A stretch of 64,000 nucleotides of DNA. Origin: an uncultured Gammaproteobacteria bacterium. GTDB lineage: Bacteria; Patescibacteriota; Patescibacteriia; VMEV01; CAZAJQ01. Of this stretch, positions 7,015 through 62,706 are shown piece by piece (position 1 is the first letter of the stretch; each line of letters begins with the position of its first letter). A program made the position numbers and the translations under genes. The notes beneath the pieces were generated by a model that was not told the DNA's origin, searched no databases, and saw only the letters and a list, made by a program, of their open reading frames with translations. The stretch spans positions 78,014 through 142,013 of the forward strand of contig CAZAJQ010000001.1 in the NCBI GenBank assembly GCA_964485795.1. The letters are read 5' to 3'.

Positions 7015-7908
7015 TTACAGCTTTGCTTTCAAATCTTCTTTTCGACTTTTTAAAGTTTTACTAATCACATGATATAAACTCCTTACATATAGATTATATT
7101 GTTGGGAGATACAATCAAATTCCTCTTCAAGATTCTTTAAATCCACAATACTTGCATCTTTTAATTTTGCAGAATAATTTGATATGTAGTCGGAATATTT
7201 TTCAACTTCATCAATAAAACACGCAAAAGCGTGGTTTATTTTCGTGAATTTTCGCTCAAGATTTTCATAATTATACTTTAACCCCAAGAGACTTCCTTGT
7301 AGAGAACTAAATCTTTCAATAAACTTGATATCATTATCTCCAAATTTCACCTTTCCATGCACTTGAATGACACCAAAAAATTCTCCATTACAAAATAATG
7401 GTACAGCCAATATATCTTTTATCCCTATAAACTTATTAATCCAAATCGAAAATTTTTTATTTACAATTGGAGCAATAAATTCAGAAATATCACTTCCTCT
7501 CATTTCCCTCTTATAGGACACCACATCAATAAGCTTATTTTTAACTGTGTTATCAAGTGGAAACTTATGCTTTTGGAAAGTCATCGGAAGCCTACTACTC
7601 ACCAAGACACTTTTCTTCGTTCTTGAAAAAGCAAAAGATTGCAAACAATTCTGATCTTTGAGATGAATATAAAATATTATTCCTGCGTATTTCTTCGGTA
7701 TATTCTTTACAAGCAAATCAACAACAATTTGAGCCAATTCATCAAAACTCATGTCCGTTAGGATTTCCTGAGTAATTTTTTCCAAAGCCTCCGCCAGCTT
7801 CTCGCCGGTTTGGTAACTCATGAGCTGTGACTCCTTCTCTTGGAGCAACTCTACCAGCTGAGCTTTGGTGTAATGTTGATATTTTTGCTTTTTCATAGAG
7901 TCAATCAT
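7015..7908 (-). CDS. GAF domain-containing protein
   Basis: 297 aa. DILAVPLFCNGEFFGVIQVHG is a typical GAF ligand-binding core. This is the first gene of a three-gene minus-strand unit ending in the histidine kinase. Confidence 0.65.
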   Translation of the reverse strand: MIDSMKKQKYQHYTKAQLVELLQEKESQLMSYQTGEKLAEALEKITQEILTDMSFDELAQIVVDLLVKNIPKKYAGIIFYIHLKDQNCLQSFAFSRTKKSVLVSSRLPMTFQKHKFPLDNTVKNKLIDVVSYKREMRGSDISEFIAPIVNKKFSIWINKFIGIKDILAVPLFCNGEFFGVIQVHGKVKFGDNDIKFIERFSSLQGSLLGLKYNYENLERKFTKINHAFACFIDEVEKYSDYISNYSAKLKDASIVDLKNLEEEFDCISQQYNLYVRSLYHVISKTLKSRKEDLKAKL

Positions 7909-11486: not shown

Positions 11487-14201
11487 ATGAAGAGAACATG
11501 TTTTGTACTGAATTTGTTGTTCTTGGTGCTTATCCCTCATGTGGCTTCCGCTTCCGGATACCTGAATATCACGGCGCGCGATCAAAGCGGGAAAAACCTC
11601 ACGCCCATCATTTACTTGAGCGGGATATTCAAAGGGTTTCCTCCTCAGCTGATGACCTTGCCGGCGGGAAATTACTCTCTCAAATTGAGCGTCATCAACG
11701 GCTATACGGAGCAATTTACCAATCCGCAAACCATTACGATTTCGGAAGGCAAAACTCTGACCGTTGATCTGCTGTACACCTCCACAAACCTCGGGACACT
11801 CAATGTCTCGGCCGTGGATACGACGGGAAAATTCTTAGGCGCGCCGTTTTCTCTTGCCGGAACGTCAAAAGGGTCTACCGCGCAATCGCTCTCCCTGAAT
11901 TCCGGCACCTATCGCGTTTCGTTTGGAACTCTTGCCGGATACTCGCTGATCAGCCAAAAAGATGTGGATGCTACGGTGTTACCCGGCATCCCCACCTCGA
12001 TCAAGGCGACTTACCAGATCCTCATGAGCTTTCAAGACGTCACCGGTCCGGATATCGTCTTTCATTCTCCCCTGCCTTTTGGCACCGTGAATCAAAGCAG
12101 CATCCTGATCAAAGGATCCATCACGGATCAAAGTCGCATTACCGCGTTTTCCGTGAACAATGTATCTTCCATCAACATTGATGCCGGAAACTGGGAATGC
12201 GGAGTGAACCTCGCGTACGGGACGAATTCCATCGCGTTCAACGCTCAAGATGAATATGGAAACAGCACGGTGAAGTACCTCATTCTCGTGTATTCGCCTC
12301 CGGACACGACGGCTCCTCTCATCACGATTGACTCGCCGTCAAACAATACCGCGCTCACCACGGATACGGCGGTCATCAAAGGAACGATCAGCGACGCCAA
12401 TGCCATCACGTCTTTTACGCTCAATGGCACACTCGGCGTGCTGCCAAACGGCAATAATTGGCAAGTGACTCACAAGCTCATGGAAGGAATCAACCTTCTC
12501 AATTTCCGAGCTGTCGATGAGTACAACAACATTTCCGAAAAGCAGCTGATCCTCTCATATACGAGACCCTTGCCGCCTTCGGGAAACGTCGAAGCCGTCA
12601 TTTCGGATGCCAATGTCACCTATCTGGTGCAGGAAGACAATGAATCCAATGCCAACGTCAAAAAAAATGACTTGCAGTGGAAAACCGCTAATCTCGTTTC
12701 CGAAACCGTACTGGTGCGTCAGGGAAGATTGATACGATTTTCCGGTTACGGGAAAAGCGCCACCGTATCTCCGATCACCGCCTATCAATGGTATGTCATG
12801 GATAACGGGAAAAAAATCGTGCTGTCGGGCAATGCCAGCTTCTCAAGTCGATTTTTACCCTATATCAATTACCAAAGCACGAATGCGGTGCTGACGGTGT
12901 TCTTCGAAGTGCGGGAAAATGCAAACACATGGTCATATCCGGCTTCCATCACCATCACGTTCAAAAGATTCGTGAAATTGTATCCGGTTTTTACGGAACA
13001 TTGGATCGCATCCGGAAATCGCTATGGAGATACCGGCGAAGATCCTAAAAACAATACGCATCTCAAATACTTCGGATCCAAAATCAATGATAATTTCGCC
13101 ATTGATTTCAACTACGGTTCCGATCGAGATGATTATCAGCGAATCCTGGTATGTCCCTTCAAAAAGGGTCAAATAACCAAGGCGGACAACTACAGCGGAT
13201 GGGGTCGTCGAGTCGGAATTACGCCGCTGGATGACTTTGACCAGCCCATTACCGATCATCTTGGAAATCCATTTCTGTACATGATCTGCCACTGTGCGGT
13301 CGTTTCCGTTTCCGAAGGTGATATCGTCTTTCTCGGCAATGAACTCGGCACTTGCGGAGCCACCAATGTCACGCAGCATAGCAATGCCACAGACAATGAC
13401 ATGAAACCCCATGTTCACGGTGCTCTCTATACCGTACGCGGCGATTGGCTGGTCAGTGTGGCGCAAGAGCCGCTGTTTCTCAATCCTAGCGATGACGAAA
13501 AAGTCGTGGATATGCTCATGGACAAGGAAACTCCGTATGAGTCACAAAACACGTTAAAAAGAAATCCGGGTATCATCGTTGTGGATGATGGCGCGGCATC
13601 CGGACTCGTCTATGATCCGCTCTACGTATATTTCGGTTACAATCGAAGCCGATATTTTTCCGAAACCTCGGTGACAAGCTCGACGGTTGAGCACGTTTGG
13701 ACGCCGACCGTCGCAAGCTCGGGATTTTACATGATCGAAGTCCTTATCCCCTATCTCAAATCCGACTCTGAAAAAGCCGTTTATGAAATCTTCACGTCCG
13801 AAGGAAAGATATATACGGCTCAAGTCAATCAGAATCTGTATGTGAACGAATGGGTGAGATTGAAAACTTCGGATCATCAATTCACTTTTTACTTCTCGAA
13901 AGGAGACAAAAACTTCGTCAAACTCACGAATAAGACGGGTGAATCCGGAAAGACACTCAGCTTTGACGCCATTCGCTTCATACAAATCAGTTCCAGCGAA
14001 TTTGGCGGCGGAAATGACGCGACCGGATCAAGCACGGACACTCGGCAAAAAAATCGCGGAGGATGTTACATGAATGCAAATGTCACATGCGACTCTCGCA
14101 ATCAAAGTGAATCGCTTGAGGACATCTTCGAAAACTTTTTTGCTCTCTATCTGCCTCTCGCACTTTTGATCTTTACTATGTACATTGTGAAAAAACGTTA
14201 A
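11487..14201 (+). CDS. large secreted protein (904 aa) with PEGA-like repeats, two tandem Ig-like repeats and a C-terminal TM anchor plus basic tail
   Basis: AAGGAG RBS 8 nt upstream. Signal peptide. Repeats SPLPFGT...IKGSITD / SPSNNTALT...IKGTISD. C-terminus FFALYLPLALLIFTMYIVKKR. Confidence 0.75.
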   Translation: MKRTCFVLNLLFLVLIPHVASASGYLNITARDQSGKNLTPIIYLSGIFKGFPPQLMTLPAGNYSLKLSVINGYTEQFTNPQTITISEGKTLTVDLLYTSTNLGTLNVSAVDTTGKFLGAPFSLAGTSKGSTAQSLSLNSGTYRVSFGTLAGYSLISQKDVDATVLPGIPTSIKATYQILMSFQDVTGPDIVFHSPLPFGTVNQSSILIKGSITDQSRITAFSVNNVSSINIDAGNWECGVNLAYGTNSIAFNAQDEYGNSTVKYLILVYSPPDTTAPLITIDSPSNNTALTTDTAVIKGTISDANAITSFTLNGTLGVLPNGNNWQVTHKLMEGINLLNFRAVDEYNNISEKQLILSYTRPLPPSGNVEAVISDANVTYLVQEDNESNANVKKNDLQWKTANLVSETVLVRQGRLIRFSGYGKSATVSPITAYQWYVMDNGKKIVLSGNASFSSRFLPYINYQSTNAVLTVFFEVRENANTWSYPASITITFKRFVKLYPVFTEHWIASGNRYGDTGEDPKNNTHLKYFGSKINDNFAIDFNYGSDRDDYQRILVCPFKKGQITKADNYSGWGRRVGITPLDDFDQPITDHLGNPFLYMICHCAVVSVSEGDIVFLGNELGTCGATNVTQHSNATDNDMKPHVHGALYTVRGDWLVSVAQEPLFLNPSDDEKVVDMLMDKETPYESQNTLKRNPGIIVVDDGAASGLVYDPLYVYFGYNRSRYFSETSVTSSTVEHVWTPTVASSGFYMIEVLIPYLKSDSEKAVYEIFTSEGKIYTAQVNQNLYVNEWVRLKTSDHQFTFYFSKGDKNFVKLTNKTGESGKTLSFDAIRFIQISSSEFGGGNDATGSSTDTRQKNRGGCYMNANVTCDSRNQSESLEDIFENFFALYLPLALLIFTMYIVKKR

Positions 14202-17654: not shown

Positions 17655-17915
17655 TCATGAAGGAACTTTTATTGCCTTCACTCCATAGAGAATCAACCCT
17701 TCCTCGCTTTTTGAAATCTTTCTCTTCATCAATGTTACCTCCTGCCCGATTTTCACGTCTTCACCATCCGCAACCGTAACCATGATCCGCTCATGGGAAT
17801 CGGCCAGCTCAATCAAGGCAACCGTATACGGCGTTTCGGCAACCATTCCGCTTGGAGCTGAAAAGAGTTTTGAAAACGTCAAAACCTTTCCTTTTTTCCC
17901 GAGGAAAGCCCGCAT
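17655..17915 (-). CDS. DUF35-type OB-fold protein, the thiolase/HMG-CoA synthase partner. It lacks the usual N-terminal Zn ribbon.
   Basis: MRAFLGKKGKVLTFSKLF...PYTVALIELADSHERIMVTVADGEDVKIGQEVTL matches the DUF35 OB-fold. The ORF-track extension to 18047 contains no Cys and overlaps the repeat element, so the ATG at 17913-17915 is preferred. Confidence 0.65.
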   Translation of the reverse strand: MRAFLGKKGKVLTFSKLFSAPSGMVAETPYTVALIELADSHERIMVTVADGEDVKIGQEVTLMKRKISKSEEGLILYGVKAIKVPS

Positions 17916-17990
17916 TTTTTTATGCTGCCGCCATACAAAAGGCGGGGTATGAAAAAGTGTCATAGAAAAAATACGTAATGGTATGAATTT

Positions 17991-18260
17991 CCTCCCCTTG
18001 GACAAGGGGAGGTGGCCGAAGGCCGGAGGGGTGAGCTTCGTGAACATGGCGTTTACCGTGTCCGAAGCGGAGGGGTGAGCTTCGTGAACATGGCGTTTAC
18101 CGTGTCCGAAGCGAAGGGGTGAGCTCCGCGAAAATGGAGCTTACCGTGTCCGAGCCGGAGGCCTGGCTCTGGCAGGGGGGTGCTTCATGAGTAAGTGCCT
18201 ATTCAATGTTCCCGCCCCACCCCTCTGCCCTTCGGGCATCTCCCCTTGTCCAAGGGGAGA
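17991..18260. repeat. composite repeat element: a 22-nt hairpin CCTCCCCTTGGACAAGGGGAGG (17991-18012), a 3 x 44-bp tandem direct repeat (18025-18156; copies 1 and 2 identical, copy 3 diverged), and an inverted copy of the hairpin TCTCCCCTTGTCCAAGGGGAGA (18239-18260)
   Basis: Read directly from the sequence. Unit: GGAGGGGTGAGCTTCGTGAACATGGCGTTTACCGTGTCCGAAGC. Confidence 0.85.
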
Positions 18261-18270
18261 ATACGCAACG

Positions 18271-19416
18271 TTATACCTTACCCAAAAGATGCATCACACA
18301 TGTCGCGCCGCTGCCGCCCACATTATGCGTCAATGCATATTTCACGTCCGGAGCCTGCCGCTTCCCCGCCTGCCCTCGAAGCTGCCATGCGGCTTCCGCG
18401 ATCTGTTTCACGCCGGTGGCGCCGACCGGATGACCGCACGCTTTCAAACCTCCGGACGTATTGAACGCCGGCTTCATATCGGAATGATTCATCATTTTCA
18501 TAAGCAACGCGCCACCTTCTCCTTTGTTTGCAAACCCGATATCCTCAAGCGCCATAAGACCCGCAATGGAAAAACAATCATGCACTTCGACAAGATCAAT
18601 GTCCGCCGGCTTCAAATTCGCGGTAGCGAATATTTTACGGCTGGCTTCTTGCGTTGATTTCAGACCGATCAAAGTTTTTCTGCCCGATAGCGAAAGCGTA
18701 TCGCAGGCGACTTCACTTGCGACTATGCAAACATCATTATCGGTTTTTCGCGCTTCCTCTGCCGACAATATCACGGCGCCCGCTCCGTCTGAAATCGGAG
18801 AGCACTCAAGCAAGGTCAAAGGGTCTGCGATCATCGAGCTTTCCAAAACGTCGTTAACTGAAATTTCTTTTTGAAACTGCGCCAACGGATTTTTCGCACC
18901 ATTCCGATGCGAAATGATCGAAGCTGCGGCCAGCTGCTCGCGTGTCGTTCCAAACGTTTCCATATGCTCCCTTGCCATCATGGCGTACAAAGCCGGAAAA
19001 GTAGCGCCGGCGAGACGTTCTTCGCTTGACGCGGCCTGCATCAAAAATGAAGCGACGGTCTCGGCCGAAAAGTCCGTCATCTTCTCCACGCCCACTACCA
19101 ACACTTTTTTATACTGCTTCGCCTCAATCGAAGTAACCGCCCGATGCACCGCAAGTCCTCCGGACGCGCAGGCTCCTTCGACGCGAAAACATGGGATGTT
19201 CACGCCGTATTGTTCACAGAGCAAGGCTCCCGCATGACTTTGCATGGCCGTTTCTCCGCAAAGCATCGTTCCGACGAAACACGCCTCAATCTCTGAAACG
19301 TTCATGCCGGAATCAAGCAACGCCAAATCAACGGCTTCTCGAAAAAGATCTTCAAAGCTTTTGTCCCAAATTTCTCCAAAACGCGTCATGCCGATGCCGG
19401 AGATGATCGTGTACAT
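18271..19416 (-). CDS. archaeal-type acetoacetyl-CoA thiolase (thiolase-like/SCP-x family)
   Basis: 381 aa; GMTRFGE...CASGG...NTSGGL...GHPVGATG thiolase signatures. Adjacent to HMGCS and DUF35 as in archaea. Confidence 0.9.
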   Translation of the reverse strand: MYTIISGIGMTRFGEIWDKSFEDLFREAVDLALLDSGMNVSEIEACFVGTMLCGETAMQSHAGALLCEQYGVNIPCFRVEGACASGGLAVHRAVTSIEAKQYKKVLVVGVEKMTDFSAETVASFLMQAASSEERLAGATFPALYAMMAREHMETFGTTREQLAAASIISHRNGAKNPLAQFQKEISVNDVLESSMIADPLTLLECSPISDGAGAVILSAEEARKTDNDVCIVASEVACDTLSLSGRKTLIGLKSTQEASRKIFATANLKPADIDLVEVHDCFSIAGLMALEDIGFANKGEGGALLMKMMNHSDMKPAFNTSGGLKACGHPVGATGVKQIAEAAWQLRGQAGKRQAPDVKYALTHNVGGSGATCVMHLLGKV

Positions 19417-19544: not shown

Positions 19545-20582
19545 CTAACGCGACAATTTGCCGCGCATTTTTACGTACTGCGGATATGAAACGTATTTTT
19601 TCTCTCGAATCTGCTCCTGCAACGTATGATTTCTCTTGAAATTTTCAATATTCTTCGTGACTTCAAAAATAAAACTGTCCGAGCCCGAGCCCGAGCCGTA
19701 GGAAGTCATGAGGATTGATTCCCCCGCTTTCGCATGATCCAAAACGTTCGCAAGGCCGAGCATGCTGCATGCCGAGTAGGTATTTCCTATCTCGGATACG
19801 ATCATCCCCGCACGCAGCTGCTTTTCGGAAACTCCGAGCGTTTTTGCGGCCATTTGGGGAAATTTACCGTTGGGCATATGAAAAATCACATGATCGAAAT
19901 CGGAAACGCTTTTACCGTTTTTTTTCAAAATCTTTTTGGTCGCGGATACGACATGCTCGAAGTATGCGGGTTCACCGGTGAATCTCCCTCCGTGAGCGGG
20001 GTACTCGGACTTTGGCGCTCGCCAAAAATCGGGCGTATCGGAAGCCATGGAAAACGTATCTTTCATCTCGCAGATGATTTCATCTTTTTTATTTCCAAAA
20101 AGAAACGCGGCCGCGCCGCTCGCCGCCGTATACTCGAGCATATCCCCCGGTGCTCCTTGAGCCGTGTCAGCGCCTACGGCAAAGCCATACGCTATCATAT
20201 TCGAGCGAACCATTGAGGCAACGATTTGCATGGCCGCGGTTCCGGCTTTGCACGCGAATTCCAAGTCTGCGGAAAAATAATCTCGCATGCCGAGAGCCTG
20301 TCCCACGAGCGTTCCGCTTGGCTTCACGGCGTACGGATGACTTTCGGAGCCGATGAACATCGCTCCGATATCTGCGGACGATATCGAAACGCTTTCCAAA
20401 GCGTATATGGCCGCGCTCAAAGCCAAAGTCACCGTATCTTCGTCCGCGGACGCTACGGCTTTTTCTCGTAAAAGAAGTCCTCTCTTGATGTTTTCAGGAT
20501 CTTTCCCGTGCGCTTGGGCTATTTCATCAGCGGTAATGCGAAACATGGGAATAAAAGATCCATAGGTGATGATACCGGACAT
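19545..20582 (-). CDS. hydroxymethylglutaryl-CoA synthase (short archaeal type)
   Basis: 345 aa; active-site Cys context DLEFACKAGT; HMGCS/FabH fold motifs. Confidence 0.9.
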   Translation of the reverse strand: MSGIITYGSFIPMFRITADEIAQAHGKDPENIKRGLLLREKAVASADEDTVTLALSAAIYALESVSISSADIGAMFIGSESHPYAVKPSGTLVGQALGMRDYFSADLEFACKAGTAAMQIVASMVRSNMIAYGFAVGADTAQGAPGDMLEYTAASGAAAFLFGNKKDEIICEMKDTFSMASDTPDFWRAPKSEYPAHGGRFTGEPAYFEHVVSATKKILKKNGKSVSDFDHVIFHMPNGKFPQMAAKTLGVSEKQLRAGMIVSEIGNTYSACSMLGLANVLDHAKAGESILMTSYGSGSGSDSFIFEVTKNIENFKRNHTLQEQIREKKYVSYPQYVKMRGKLSR

Positions 20583-20680: not shown

Positions 20681-21829
20681 CTACGAACGTTCACGGTAAC
20701 TCTTATGCACACGAGCCAAATCCTGCGAGGCGAGGCATGCAAGCAGAGATATTTCGCCGGCCAAGACGGCGCCGGCGATGATTTCAACGAAGGCGTGATG
20801 AGCGCTGCCAGGGTTACCCTCGTCGATGGTGATTCCCATCATGGCCAGCGATTCACTTTGCTTGGGAAGTCCGGTGCCTCCGCCCACGACCCCGCATACC
20901 ACGCTCGGCAAAAAAACATTGACATAGACGCCGCCGTCCTTTTCCTTCTCGACGGATGTGATCCCGAGACTTCCTTCCACGACATGCGCCATATCCTGCC
21001 CCGTCGCCAAAAAAATCGCGGAAATGATGTTTGCATAATGCGCATTCATGGCCATCGAACCGGCGGCAAGCGATCCGGCAACGATCTTGCTCTGATACAC
21101 GTCAAAAAATTCATCGGCATCGGTCTTGAGCACGTTTTTCAAAACATCCGCCGTCAATACGACCTCGGCGTTCACGGAATATCCGCGGCCTTCAAGCATA
21201 TGGGTGAATGCCGCCTTTTTATCGCTGCAATAATTTCCCGACAATGAGCGACATCGCACTTTTGTTTCGGGTTCGATGATGTGAGAAATGAGATGGTCGC
21301 ACGCGATCACCGCCATATTCATCCCCATGGCATCTTTGGGATCAAAGGTGAATTTCACAAAAACATTTCTCCCGATCTGCTTGCAAAAAATGCCGACGAG
21401 CTCCAAAAATCGGCTCGTCTTGCGAATTTCAGCGCCGAATCTCTCTTTGTTTTTCATGATAAAATCCATGAAATCCTTTCCCTGCCGCTGATGCAGCACT
21501 CGAAAAACCGGAGCGCGCGTGATGCCGACATGATGCGCCCTCACAGTCGCTCCTCCGGACAAGGTGATCGCTTTGCACCCGCGATTGACACTGGCGACGA
21601 GGCACCCCTCGGTCGTGGACAGCGTCAATATCCTTTCGTCGTTGACGATGTCTCCGTTGATTTTCAGCGGCCCGGCGATGCCGAGCGGAACGCTCACCGC
21701 GCCGATCATATTTTCGCAGTTCTTTGTCGCGCATCCGAGATACTCGTCGCTTCCGGCAAGAATCTTCGCGGCACTCACGCGACCGTACGATAATATTTTT
21801 TCTAATTTTTCACGGCTCTTTTCCGACAT
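20681..21829 (-). CDS. HMG-CoA reductase, class I-like catalytic domain
   Basis: 382 aa; ENMIGAVSVPLGIAGPL and DAMGMNM motifs. Confidence 0.9.
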   Translation of the reverse strand: MSEKSREKLEKILSYGRVSAAKILAGSDEYLGCATKNCENMIGAVSVPLGIAGPLKINGDIVNDERILTLSTTEGCLVASVNRGCKAITLSGGATVRAHHVGITRAPVFRVLHQRQGKDFMDFIMKNKERFGAEIRKTSRFLELVGIFCKQIGRNVFVKFTFDPKDAMGMNMAVIACDHLISHIIEPETKVRCRSLSGNYCSDKKAAFTHMLEGRGYSVNAEVVLTADVLKNVLKTDADEFFDVYQSKIVAGSLAAGSMAMNAHYANIISAIFLATGQDMAHVVEGSLGITSVEKEKDGGVYVNVFLPSVVCGVVGGGTGLPKQSESLAMMGITIDEGNPGSAHHAFVEIIAGAVLAGEISLLACLASQDLARVHKSYRERS

Positions 21830-22839: not shown

Positions 22840-23760
22840 ATGGCTCTTGCACTCGCCCCCACAAAACTCATTCTCATCGGTGAACATGCGGTTGTGTACG
22901 GATATCCGGGACTTTCTTTGCCTTTGCCGCTTCTCACCACCGCCGAAGTGCTCCATCATGGTGAGCCCGACATTCATCTGGAAGCGAATTTCAAACTTGC
23001 GGAAGAAGTGGTCGACTGGCTCCACAAGCTCCTCGACCCGCTTTTCGATATTTTTCCAAATAAAAACAATCTCCTCGTCCGTCTTCATGTGACGGCCGAG
23101 GCAGGTTCGGGGATGGGCGTATCCGCAAGCGTTGCCGTGGCTTTGATACGCGCATTCTTTGATTATTATAATAAAAAACTGGACCAAAAGACACTTTTTG
23201 ATCTGGCTCGGCAGATGGAAACCGTCTCCCACGGAAAACCAAGCGGAATCGATCATACCACGATCATTGAGAATGAACCACTTTTTTTCAAAAAAATCAA
23301 CGGAAAGCTTTCCATTCGAAAAATTCCAAAACTTTTCAATCCCATGATTTTCAAACATTGCGCCATACTCTTCAGCGGAAAACCTATCGAAAGCACGAAA
23401 ACGATGGTTGAGCTCGTGAAAACGCGTCATGAACGCGATGAAAACTTGGTCAATGAAACGTTTGAGAACATCGAAAATCTCACCTATGCGCTTTTTACCA
23501 GCCTCATGATTTCCGACGAAACGCTTTTTCACGAGACGCTCGCTTACGCCGGAGATCAGCTCACGGCATTGGGAGTCGTCTCACCGACCGCTTCCCGCTT
23601 GCGAAAAAAGCTTGAAACGCTTGGAGTCGCTTCCAAAATTTCCGGAGCCGGAGGAGCATGCGCCGGATCGGGTATCCTTCTCTGCCATCATGAAGATCAA
23701 AACATCATCACGGATTTCGCGAACCGAAACGATATCAAGTTTTGGACTCCATGGGCTTGA
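22840..23760 (+). CDS. mvk: mevalonate kinase (GHMP kinase)
   Basis: APTKLILIGEHAVVYG, SGMGVSAS and KISGAGGGA motifs. Its ATG directly abuts the IDI-2 start codon on the other strand (CAT|ATG). Confidence 0.9.
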   Translation: MALALAPTKLILIGEHAVVYGYPGLSLPLPLLTTAEVLHHGEPDIHLEANFKLAEEVVDWLHKLLDPLFDIFPNKNNLLVRLHVTAEAGSGMGVSASVAVALIRAFFDYYNKKLDQKTLFDLARQMETVSHGKPSGIDHTTIIENEPLFFKKINGKLSIRKIPKLFNPMIFKHCAILFSGKPIESTKTMVELVKTRHERDENLVNETFENIENLTYALFTSLMISDETLFHETLAYAGDQLTALGVVSPTASRLRKKLETLGVASKISGAGGACAGSGILLCHHEDQNIITDFANRNDIKFWTPWA

Positions 23761-24555: not shown

Positions 24556-25575
24556 TTATTCGTTGACGGCTTCCAAAACGATTTTCGCTCCTTCCGCCGG
24601 CTTATTTTCGATCAGGGTAATCACCCCCGGCACCGACGCAAGCTCATTCTTGACGTTCAAAACGCAATCGCCTTCGCAAATGACGTGAACATTGGATCCG
24701 GCGTCAATCGTCGCATAGGCGAGTATTCCTTTTTCACGAAGCTCCCTGACGCGATCGAGCACTCTCATGGTGGAATCGTTCCAATAAAATATCGGGGGCT
24801 TTTGCGTCATGGCGATGCAATGCATGCAGACGCTGTCTTCTTCGATCACGGTTCCCAAAGCGCGAATGTCTTTTTTTTCTATCGCCTCCCGGCATCTTCG
24901 TAATCGATCCGGTATCGCGGATATCCTCGAGGGAAAGTGCGGACTGGTCTCGGCGGCTCGGTGTCCGTCGCTTGAAGACACTTTCTTTTTATCCACGGCG
25001 ACCACGGCCACGATATCGGCCAGATCCCAATGCTCATGCGTCGCGATTTACACGGAATGACAAGTATCGCGGCAATAATCCATGCAAGATTCCACAAAAC
25101 CGCCGTGACTGGATCGCATGGCGGACACCGAGCCGCCGAGACGAATGAGCTCGGAAAGTCTTTTCCTGTCATTCACGTATTCATCCAGTCCGTACGCTTG
25201 ACACAAAGCGAGCGTCAAAGCCGCAAATCCCGAGGCCGATGATGCGATACCGACATCGGAGGGGAAATTGTTTTCCGAACGGATATTCGCGAATCTCAAA
25301 TCGTTTCCCAACGCTCGAATTCGACCGATATGCTCAAACATCAAACGCTGCTTGATATCGCCTTCGTTTTTGACCCGTTGAAATTCTTTCCCGAAAAATT
25401 TCACCCTCACGTCATCGTCAATAGATTTTTCCATGATTTCAACGCTCGTCACCGTGAAACAATTCGAAAGGGTCATGGAAATGGTATTGGTATAAGGCAA
25501 AAAAATGGTCTTGTCTTTTTGACCCCAATATTTGATAAACGCGATATTTGCCGGTGCCCATGCCGTCGCTTTCAT
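24556..25575 (-). pseudogene. diphospho-/phospho-mevalonate decarboxylase homologue (GHMP family) interrupted by one in-frame TAA at 25048-25050. Seen as two same-frame ORFs, 175 aa and 151 aa.
   Basis: N-terminal part APANIAFIKYWGQKD...SSASGFAAL...RLGGSVSAMRS. C-terminal part ...KKVSSSDGHR...PPIFYWNDSTMRV...YATIDAGSNVHVIC. Both ORFs share a frame (25575, 25050 and 25011 are all 0 mod 3). The 12 codons between them (IATHEHWDLADI) have no stop. Confidence 0.8.
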
Positions 25576-32270: not shown

Positions 32271-32370
32271 TACTGAGAACTGAGTACTGAGTACTGAGTA
32301 CTGAGCACTGAGTACTGAGCACTGAGAACTGAGCACTGAGTACTGAGAACTGAGTACTCTGTTCTCAGCG
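32271..32370. repeat. (TACTGAG)n heptanucleotide array, ~14 units with A/C/T variation, ending in an inverted unit. Family member 3 of 3.
   Basis: tactgagaactgagtactgagtactgagtactgagcactgag...tactctgttctcag, between the ligA start and the end of the pilus-operon tail gene. Confidence 0.85.
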
Positions 32371-62490: not shown

Positions 62491-62578
62491 AGAGTAAGAT
62501 TAAGAATAAGTTCCTAGAGTGTTCACGAGGTCATGATAACAGATTTACTGAACCTGTGCGTGTTCGCTTGAGCAAATA

Positions 62579-62665
62579 CGGAGAGGGTGGGATTCGAACC
62601 CACGGAACCCTTGCGGGCTCTCCGGTTTTCAAGACCGGTGCTTTCAACCGCTCAGCCACCTCTCC
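62579..62665 (-). tRNA. tRNA-Ser (anticodon UGA)
   Basis: The reverse complement folds as GGAGAGG acceptor, anticodon arm CCGGT-CTTGAAA-ACCGG (U33, UGA, A37), long variable arm, T-arm GTGGGTTCGAATCCCAC, discriminator G. No encoded CCA. Confidence 0.9.
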
Positions 62666-62673
62666 ATTTCATA

Positions 62674-62706
62674 GAGTCTAGAATCTAGAGCCTAGATTCT
62701 AGACTC
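62674..62706. repeat. perfect 15-bp inverted repeat GAGTCTAGAATCTAG-agc-CTAGATTCTAGACTC, followed by further TCTAGA copies. It lies 9 nt upstream of tRNA-Ser(UGA).
   Basis: Read directly. TCTAGA occurs 5 times in 62674-62730. Confidence 0.85.

Follow-up and report, generated by a model that had tools for sequence, protein, structure and literature searches.

A putative inverted doublet of intrastrand triplex motifs enclosing a 44-bp minisatellite in a mevalonate operon of a Patescibacteria genome

The stretch of DNA analysed here (the window) comprises 64,000 nt of contig CAZAJQ010000001.1 (positions 78,014 to 142,013 of the forward strand; assembly GCA_964485795.1) from a metagenome-assembled genome (MAG) of the candidate phyla radiation (CPR), and with an extra 8.5 kb beyond the window a total of 72.5 kb of this genome was scanned. 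At positions 17991-18260, in the spacer between a thiolase gene and a gene of the DUF35 type, the window carries an element of 270 bp with a G+C content of 62%, compared with 46% for the window. We interpret this element, with a probability of about 0.6, as an inverted doublet of G/C-rich class II intrastrand triplex motifs whose interior has been expanded by a 44-bp minisatellite. Motifs of this class have been named BoxC, "potential intrastrand triplex" (PIT) elements and TM motifs (Hoyne et al. 2000; Holder et al. 2015, PMC4666352), and the assignment would place the palindrome of this element in a defined and experimentally studied class of repeats.

The element is bounded by two inverted arms of 42-43 nt each (17992-18033 and 18218-18259) that are 90% complementary. 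The left arm holds the 22-nt hairpin CCTCCCCTTGGACAAGGGGAGG (17991-18012) and the right arm its inverted partner TCTCCCCTTGTCCAAGGGGAGA (18239-18260), and in the 64 kb this hairpin pattern was found at the two arm sites only, where shuffled sequences gave an expectation of 0. On one strand, each arm is ordered as a C/T-rich domain (Y), a loop, a domain that pairs with Y (R), a hairpin loop and a G-rich mirror of R, the reverse-Hoogsteen domain (RH); published class II motifs have the same Y-R-RH order from 5' to 3' (PMC4666352). The left triplex motif, on the plus strand, consists of the pyrimidine domain CCTCCCCTT (17991..17999), loop 1 (GGAC; 18000..18003), the purine domain AAGGGGAGG in Watson-Crick pairing with Y (18004..18012), a loop 2 with the mini-hairpin GGCC-GAA-GGCC (18013..18024) and the RH domain GGAGGGGTG (18025..18033). 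The right motif lies on the minus strand and runs from the Y domain TCTCCCCTT (18252..18260) through loop 1 (18248..18251), the R domain AAGGGGAGA (18239..18247) and loop 2 (18227..18238) with its mini-hairpin GCCC-GAA-GGGC to the RH domain AGAGGGGTG (18218..18226).

The G-rich tail of the motif is a mirror image of the purine arm and not a complement to it, as the mirrored form of AAGGGGAGG is GGAGGGGAA and the tail seen was GGAGGGGT(T/G). This mirror relationship matches the antiparallel purine-motif rule for triple helices (G·G-C, A·A-T and T·A-T), and on a single DNA strand RH is predicted to fold back along the purine arm of the hairpin to form these triplets, with 8/8 of the left RH positions giving allowed triplets. 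A scan for Y-R-RH motifs, with Y a pyrimidine tract of at least 8 nt, R a perfect Watson-Crick partner, loop 2 of at most 32 nt and RH following the triplet rule, returned exactly two G/C-rich motifs with 8/8 perfect triplets in 64 kb, and these were the two arms; among 30 block-shuffles there were 0 matches in 29 and 1 match in one. Both arms agree with the class II structural definition (a stem of 8 nt or more and no more than one mismatch), having 8/8 triplets or nine with one mismatch, and the element shares with the class an intergenic location (a 307-nt spacer) and an inverted pair of two motif variants. Loop 1 measures 4 nt, and loop 2, at 12 nt with its 4-bp hairpin, is beyond the published loop limits (1-6 nt for ITxF; 0-10 nt for Hoyne et al.). 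Those limits were set for the published searches and are not demanded by the structure. The element corresponds to the structural definition of class II yet lies outside the published loop limits, and it is closest to BoxC/PIT/TM in how it works.

The arms differ from each other at five of 43 positions, and every one of these differences keeps the fold. Three of the five make up the outermost triple (Y1/R9/RH1), where C-G·G of the left arm corresponds to T-A·A of the right arm, and the other two exchange a G-C for a C-G pair in the 4-bp hairpin of loop 2. The probability that five random substitutions would keep the arm fold was calculated as 4.5e-4, or 1.5e-6 with all five in constrained positions. 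When the arms are paired with each other as the stem of a terminal inverted repeat (TIR), the same five differences become uncompensated mismatches. Differences that are compensated within arms and mismatched between them indicate that the conserved object is each arm's own fold, which argues against conservation of a long arm-to-arm stem and against conservation of a transposase-binding sequence.

The same module was found in other genomes when the hairpin core CTCCCCTTGNNCAAGGGGAG was scanned for in one genome per species; all counts given here for the hairpin and its co-variation were taken from the matches listed. The matches listed comprised more than 110 loci with this hairpin (H1), distributed over many phyla, and in other genomes the family is multi-copy. 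Most of the listed loci carried a G-rich tail on one side, such as GGAGGGGT, GGGTGGGGTT or GGTGAGGGGTT, at a distance of 1-28 nt, and the long linkers within this range, equivalent to loop 2, were themselves hairpins of unrelated sequence. An RH core (at most one mismatch, within 45 nt) accompanied 100 of 235 oriented hairpin instances, compared with 8.7% in a random control. Beyond the core that was fixed by the search, position R+1 was G with RH-1 also G in 37 of 40 unique modules, and R+1 was A with RH-1 either A or T in 10 of 12, counts that ignore the relatedness of the sequences. Partner motifs with other hairpins obey the mirror rule as well (AAGGAGGGG/GGGGTGGT, AAGGGGGAG/GAGGGGGTT and AAGGGAGAGG/GGTGAGGGTT), and inverted doublets with RH facing inward and 13-73 nt between the motifs were the common arrangement, seen at approximately 25 of the loci fetched. 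Together, the compensated triple between the arms and the co-variation across the family constitute simple and testable evidence of constraint on triple-helix geometry.

Additionally, one locus of a Candidatus Uhrbacteria genome, also of the CPR (L070), contained two doublets at 7015-7122 and 7596-7709, separated by approximately 470 nt, each composed of a CCCCTCCTT-type and a CCTCCCCTT-type motif and with flanking sequence common to both, so that the family is present in the CPR as a repeat. In Maribacter sp. 2307ULW6-5 (L030:4156-5107; also L029, L041, L104 and L118) we observed arrays of 336-403-nt units, each unit with one triplex motif whose loop 2 is a 28-nt hairpin (TTTTCCAC...GTGGAAAA), and these arrays also hold 66-nt tandem sub-repeats. 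The Maribacter arrays are another case of tandem reiteration beside triplex motifs.

The interior of the doublet measures 184-186 nt and consists almost entirely of 44-bp units. Three tandem units on the plus strand (18024..18155) were delimited at 18024-18067, 18068-18111 and 18112-18155 with identities of 100, 100 and 82% (TRF score 220, 3.1 copies, extending to 18161), and these are followed by a degenerate fourth unit that begins at 18156 (CGGAGG...GGGGGGTGCTTCATGA...) and, with a unique spacer, occupies 18156..18217. Every unit opens with an RH-like motif, GGAGGGGTG at 18025 and 18069 and GAAGGGGTG at 18113, after which each 44-bp unit has a hairpin GCTTCG...CGAAGC. The start of the array coincides exactly with the RH domain of the left arm, which thus also forms the beginning of unit 1. 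Since each unit opens with a copy of RH, the array is most simply explained as a product of slippage. The identity of units 1 and 2 points to a recent duplication, with unit 3 and the decayed fourth unit being older, and two identical units, one at 82% and one decayed indicate repeated rounds of duplication.

A mechanism consistent with this organisation would begin with the doublet arriving or arising at the thiolase-DUF35 junction. In DNA made single-stranded by replication, repair or transcription the arms may fold and hinder the polymerase, and slippage between reiterated RH motifs could then have produced the 44-bp array, which is the simplest mechanism that we can propose. Although we infer this slippage origin from the arrangement of the units, it agrees with the reported block of DNA polymerase by PIT elements in vitro and with the locally raised variability of the genome that is associated with the E. 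coli family TMECO (PMC4666352). The doublet would be transcribed together with the operon, as an RNA segment that folds strongly, and would have no dedicated regulatory role. A broader proposal is that triplex-motif doublets with a hairpin in loop 2 might form a cross-phylum DNA element overlooked through loop limits of 6-10 nt, that their three-way co-variation, both between the present arms and across families, might be comparative evidence for in vivo selection on a triple-helical fold, and that here such a doublet seeded a minisatellite; we put this forward tentatively, as a possibility with the odds against it. If true, it would represent a natural case of triplex-driven repeat expansion in which an element reiterates its own third strand, within an essential operon of a reduced CPR genome.

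Several characteristics are shared with BoxC, PIT and TMECO elements, including three blocks on one strand, of which the first is C-rich and the other two are G-rich mirror images of each other, stems of 9 nt, an intergenic location, close inverted pairs of two variants, loops that are less conserved than stems, and local sequence instability. In E. coli, TMECO motifs are always intergenic, have neither promoter nor terminator activity, and include five closely spaced inverted pairs that always combine two variants, type A and type B (PMC4666352). The element is not a member of the TMECO family, as its stems and its loop 2 both depart from the TMECO consensus CCCTCNCCC N3-6 GGGNGAGGG N3 GGGNGAGGG: the three domains are CCTCCCCTT / AAGGGGAGG / GGAGGGGTG here and CCCTCNCCC / GGGNGAGGG / GGGNGAGGG in TMECO, and loop 2 is 12 nt with its own hairpin in comparison to 3 nt, so that searches limited to loops of 6 or 10 nt would miss it. 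Unlike the closely spaced TMECO pairs, the two motifs here are separated by 184-186 nt, with a 44-bp minisatellite between them in which the third-strand motif is reiterated, and the host of the single doublet seen in 72.5 kb is a CPR (Parcubacteria) MAG. The repeat class itself is known and this variant of it is new, which is of modest interest for genome biology; with our assignment the class would come to include CPR bacteria as hosts, motifs whose loop 2 contains a hairpin, and a doublet around a minisatellite built on the third-strand motif.

A number of points weigh against this assignment. The 12-nt loop 2 with its hairpin exceeds the loops by which the class has been defined, and a single doublet was seen in 72.5 kb of genome, with no second copy of the element or of a G/C-rich triplex motif, whereas many copies per genome are part of how the class is defined. 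The triplex is predicted from sequence, and in E. coli single-stranded TMECO formed a stable triplex in vitro while none was detected in vivo (PMC4666352). Slippage as the source of the array and "insertion" of the doublet are both steps that we infer, and the nearest relative with comparable data shows only 60% thiolase identity.

The preliminary description of this region had reported palindromes around a 3 x 44-bp array, an anatomy that our analysis bears out in full, and had regarded the organisation as MITE-like or as a minisatellite. The minisatellite part stands. For the other part, a non-autonomous transposable element would be envisaged, either a MITE (a miniature transposable element with inverted repeats) or a modular element like the pneumococcal BOX, with 42-nt TIRs that served as transposase sites, mobilisation in trans, insertion into the junction and subsequent reiteration of an internal module. 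Such an origin could account for the 90% complementarity of the terminal repeats, for 270 bp of raised G+C content that have no coding capacity, for a position between genes that overlap in relatives, for a possible 6-nt direct repeat (AATACG), and for the break of three Logan assemblies in the right arm, as is often caused by repeats. Chunjie of Geobacter is an example of a bacterial MITE inserted within an operon, and like such MITEs the element is small and non-coding, has terminal inverted repeats and lies between co-transcribed genes that it leaves unbroken. It differs from them in that no other copy or cognate insertion sequence was found in the sequence examined, in the lack of a clear target-site duplication (one AATACG abuts the right end while the left copy lies 16 nt from the arm, a weak match with a shuffle p of approximately 0.016) and in having arms that evolve to keep their own fold. 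REP/REPIN doublets are mobilised by RAYT transposases, and REPs are not known to have a mirror-image third strand; the element resembles them as an inverted doublet of short G/C-rich extragenic palindromes, but appears to have no conserved GTAG-type head and does possess a mirror-image third strand. Pneumococcal BOX elements reportedly have the structure boxA - boxB(n) - boxC, with a boxB of about 45 bp. Compared on architecture alone, BOX and the present element have in common partly complementary end modules, a variable number of tandem units of approximately 45 bp between them, an intergenic and non-coding nature and strong folding when transcribed, whereas the ends of BOX are not described as triplex motifs and a genome carries more than 100 copies of BOX.

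The preliminary description also advised a search for other copies, and this gave a divided outcome. The hairpin family does occur elsewhere, as reported above, but no second copy of the element was found in the 72.5 kb, and neither the 44-bp unit nor the complete element was recovered from the JGI, IMG/VR, plasmid and phage searches: the pattern of the 44-bp unit gave 0 matches in JGI metagenomes, where the hairpin-plus-tail pattern gave three, all of them solitary modules or short doublets and none with a 44-bp array; the same pattern extended into the array (tail + GAGC) gave 0 matches in IMG/VR; and the 281-nt region of the element had no blastn match in plasmids or phages. The element was likewise missing from the operon loci of all five relatives that were scanned, where no G/C-rich triplex motif was seen either. 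TMECO motifs, moreover, were not found to be associated with mobile elements (PMC4666352), and differences between the arms of the present element are compensated within each arm instead of being kept as a protein-binding sequence. Compensation of this kind points to a self-folding repeat of triplex motifs rather than to terminal repeats bound by a transposase, and a MITE-like origin is in our view unlikely.

Alternatively, the element might act in cis as RNA, its long stem-loop serving as a barrier to RNase III or exonucleases or as a translational uncoupler that sets the ratio of the scaffold protein DUF35 to the enzymes. It does lie within an operon on the transcribed strand and takes the place of a junction that is translationally coupled, and its predicted RNA fold has a free energy of -150.6 kcal/mol; compared with shuffled sequences, the fold of the region had z = -9.2 as RNA and -9.3 as DNA. 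No Rfam family matched over the module, with the window searched at gathering threshold, the region permissively, and 14 loci from other genomes included; the best match, D12-methyl at 18 bits against a threshold of 57 bits, is attributable to chance. A promoter and terminator scan of the element detected neither, and no terminator-like site or U tract as in intrinsic terminators was present; PIT/TM motifs are reported to have neither promoter nor terminator activity. The element is missing from the operons of all five relatives, the arm-to-arm stem contains uncompensated differences, and the co-variation obeys the rule for purine-motif triplexes, which are reported not to form in RNA (PMC4666352). 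We consider a regulatory RNA improbable, more so than a transposable element. Two further candidates were rejected, namely protein-coding tandem units, whose length of 44 bp is not divisible by 3 and for which no homologue was detected, and a G-quadruplex, as the G runs are approximately 40 nt apart.

An artefact of assembly was also considered, whether through collapse or duplication of a repeat or through a chimeric join. The three independent short-read Logan assemblies SRR12113383, SRR12113384 and SRR12113385 (L002, L003 and L004) all end at 18236, inside the element in loop 2 of the right arm; possible causes of these breaks are a lack of coverage at a strong structure, a branch of the assembly graph caused by other copies, or population heterogeneity. 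In a second assembly of the same organism, the Parcubacteria MAG GCA_016204025.1, the element is identical base for base, and the six single-nucleotide polymorphisms (SNPs) that distinguish the two NCBI assemblies over 21 kb all fall outside it. The flanks are syntenic with those of relatives. The 88-nt stretch of identical sequence is shorter than typical read lengths, which also counts against an artefact, and we regard one as very improbable. Elements of this kind coincide with breaks in short-read assemblies, which bears on MAG quality. The six SNPs themselves form two tight clusters of three (13369-13381 and 25050-25068), which suggests local strain variants or a consensus mixture.

Reconsideration of the neighbouring genes removed a false lead concerning the DUF35 gene. 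The preliminary description placed the element where the N-terminus of DUF35 should be and suggested that it had deleted or replaced a zinc ribbon, offering as an alternative that DUF35 is natively ribbon-less here. The element lies instead in a 307-nt spacer that extends from the thiolase stop codon (18271-18273) to the DUF35 start (17963), with both genes on the minus strand, and there is no overlap with the N-terminus. It is separated from the thiolase stop codon by a 10-nt spacer (18261..18270, minus strand) and from the DUF35 ATG by a 27-nt A/T-rich leader (17964..17990, minus strand), in which neither the sequence nor a survey of upstream regions identified a Shine-Dalgarno motif. The DUF35-type OB-fold gene (17655..17963, minus strand; 102 aa, starting MTLFHTPPFVWRQHK), assigned through PF01796 and alignments, matched Pfam PF01796 (OB fold) only (E = 7.6e-9); no zinc-ribbon Pfam match and no CxxC were found in the protein, and the four cysteines of a ribbon are accordingly absent. 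In an alignment, residues 20-100 of this protein correspond to residues 47-128 of the DUF35 subunit in an archaeal thiolase/HMG-CoA synthase complex (PDB 6ESQ_E), a subunit that extends approximately 27 residues further at the N-terminus.

The operons of five relatives (L006, L007, L008, L122 and L124), with thiolase identities from 60% down to approximately 51% and including a Daviesbacteria MAG and another Patescibacteria MAG, were decisive. All five encode an OB-only DUF35 of 98-104 aa that lacks CxxC pairs, and all share the N-terminal motif P-x-x-(V/I/N)-W-R, with which the protein of the window aligns from Met29 of a 130-aa open reading frame (ORF). Four of these operons have a thiolase stop that overlaps the DUF35 start (ATGA) or is 1 nt away from it, compared with 307 nt here. 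The fifth (L006) has an Rce1-like gene between thiolase and DUF35. It could be argued that the element is a remnant of, or a substitute for, the ribbon coding sequence, as the canonical DUF35 is described as having an N-terminal zinc ribbon (PMC2954200) and the archaeal protein is longer at this end. The relatives have the same N-terminal motif and length without possessing the element, and lack the ribbon equally, which shows that the ribbon was not removed by it; the orthologue alignment refutes the inferred disruption, leaves a ribbon remnant with next to no credibility, and favours the alternative of a natively ribbon-less protein. ORFs inside the element had been dismissed as artefacts, and we agree, since the DUF35 N-terminus aligns only from Met29 and six-frame peptides of the element had no match at E <= 10 among 5.8 billion proteins, a search that also recovered no spurious ORFs from sister copies, albeit as a weak negative.

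The DUF35 gene was called at 102 aa (P0001) in one NCBI assembly and at 63 aa from an internal Met (P0002) in the other, and the N-terminal alignment with relatives identifies the 102-aa protein as the true form and the 63-aa call as too short, which corrects the annotation. A survey of upstream regions showed that most genes of the operon have no Shine-Dalgarno motif, so the leader of DUF35 is not abnormal in this respect; the gene is untouched and is probably still translated from its A/U-rich leader. In comparison to canonical DUF35 proteins (SSO2064; PDB 6ESQ/6ET9), the C-terminal OB fold and the neighbouring thiolase and HMG-CoA synthase genes are the same, whereas the four-Cys zinc ribbon at the N-terminus is absent here and in all Patescibacteria relatives examined. 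DUF35 is thus undisrupted. Among the mevalonate operons of Patescibacteria that we examined, the norm is the OB-only form, which is relevant to the scaffolding of the thiolase/HMG-CoA synthase complex in these bacteria.

The mevalonate operon is located on the minus strand and contains genes for a type-2 isopentenyl diphosphate isomerase (IDI2), HMG-CoA reductase (20681-21829), HMG-CoA synthase (19545-20582), thiolase (18271..19416) and DUF35. Together with the region at 22840-23760 on the plus strand, the rest of this operon gives the MAG a complete mevalonate set of archaeal type, whose members are mevalonate kinase, an MVD-like enzyme, isopentenyl phosphate kinase, IDI2, HMG-CoA reductase, HMG-CoA synthase, thiolase, DUF35 and polyprenyl synthase.

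Other repeats were observed in the window. Intergenic tandem arrays with periods of 7/14 nt are situated at 2541-2641 and 32271-32358 and belong to one heptamer family (TACTGAG / CACTGAG / AACTGAG); they are 30 kb apart and in opposite orientation, and the first ends 13 nt before an ATG. At 62672-62706 a short array of 7-mers contains a perfect 15-nt palindrome (GAGTCTAGAATCTAG / CTAGATTCTAGACTC), which directly adjoins tRNA-Ser(TGA) at 62578-62666.

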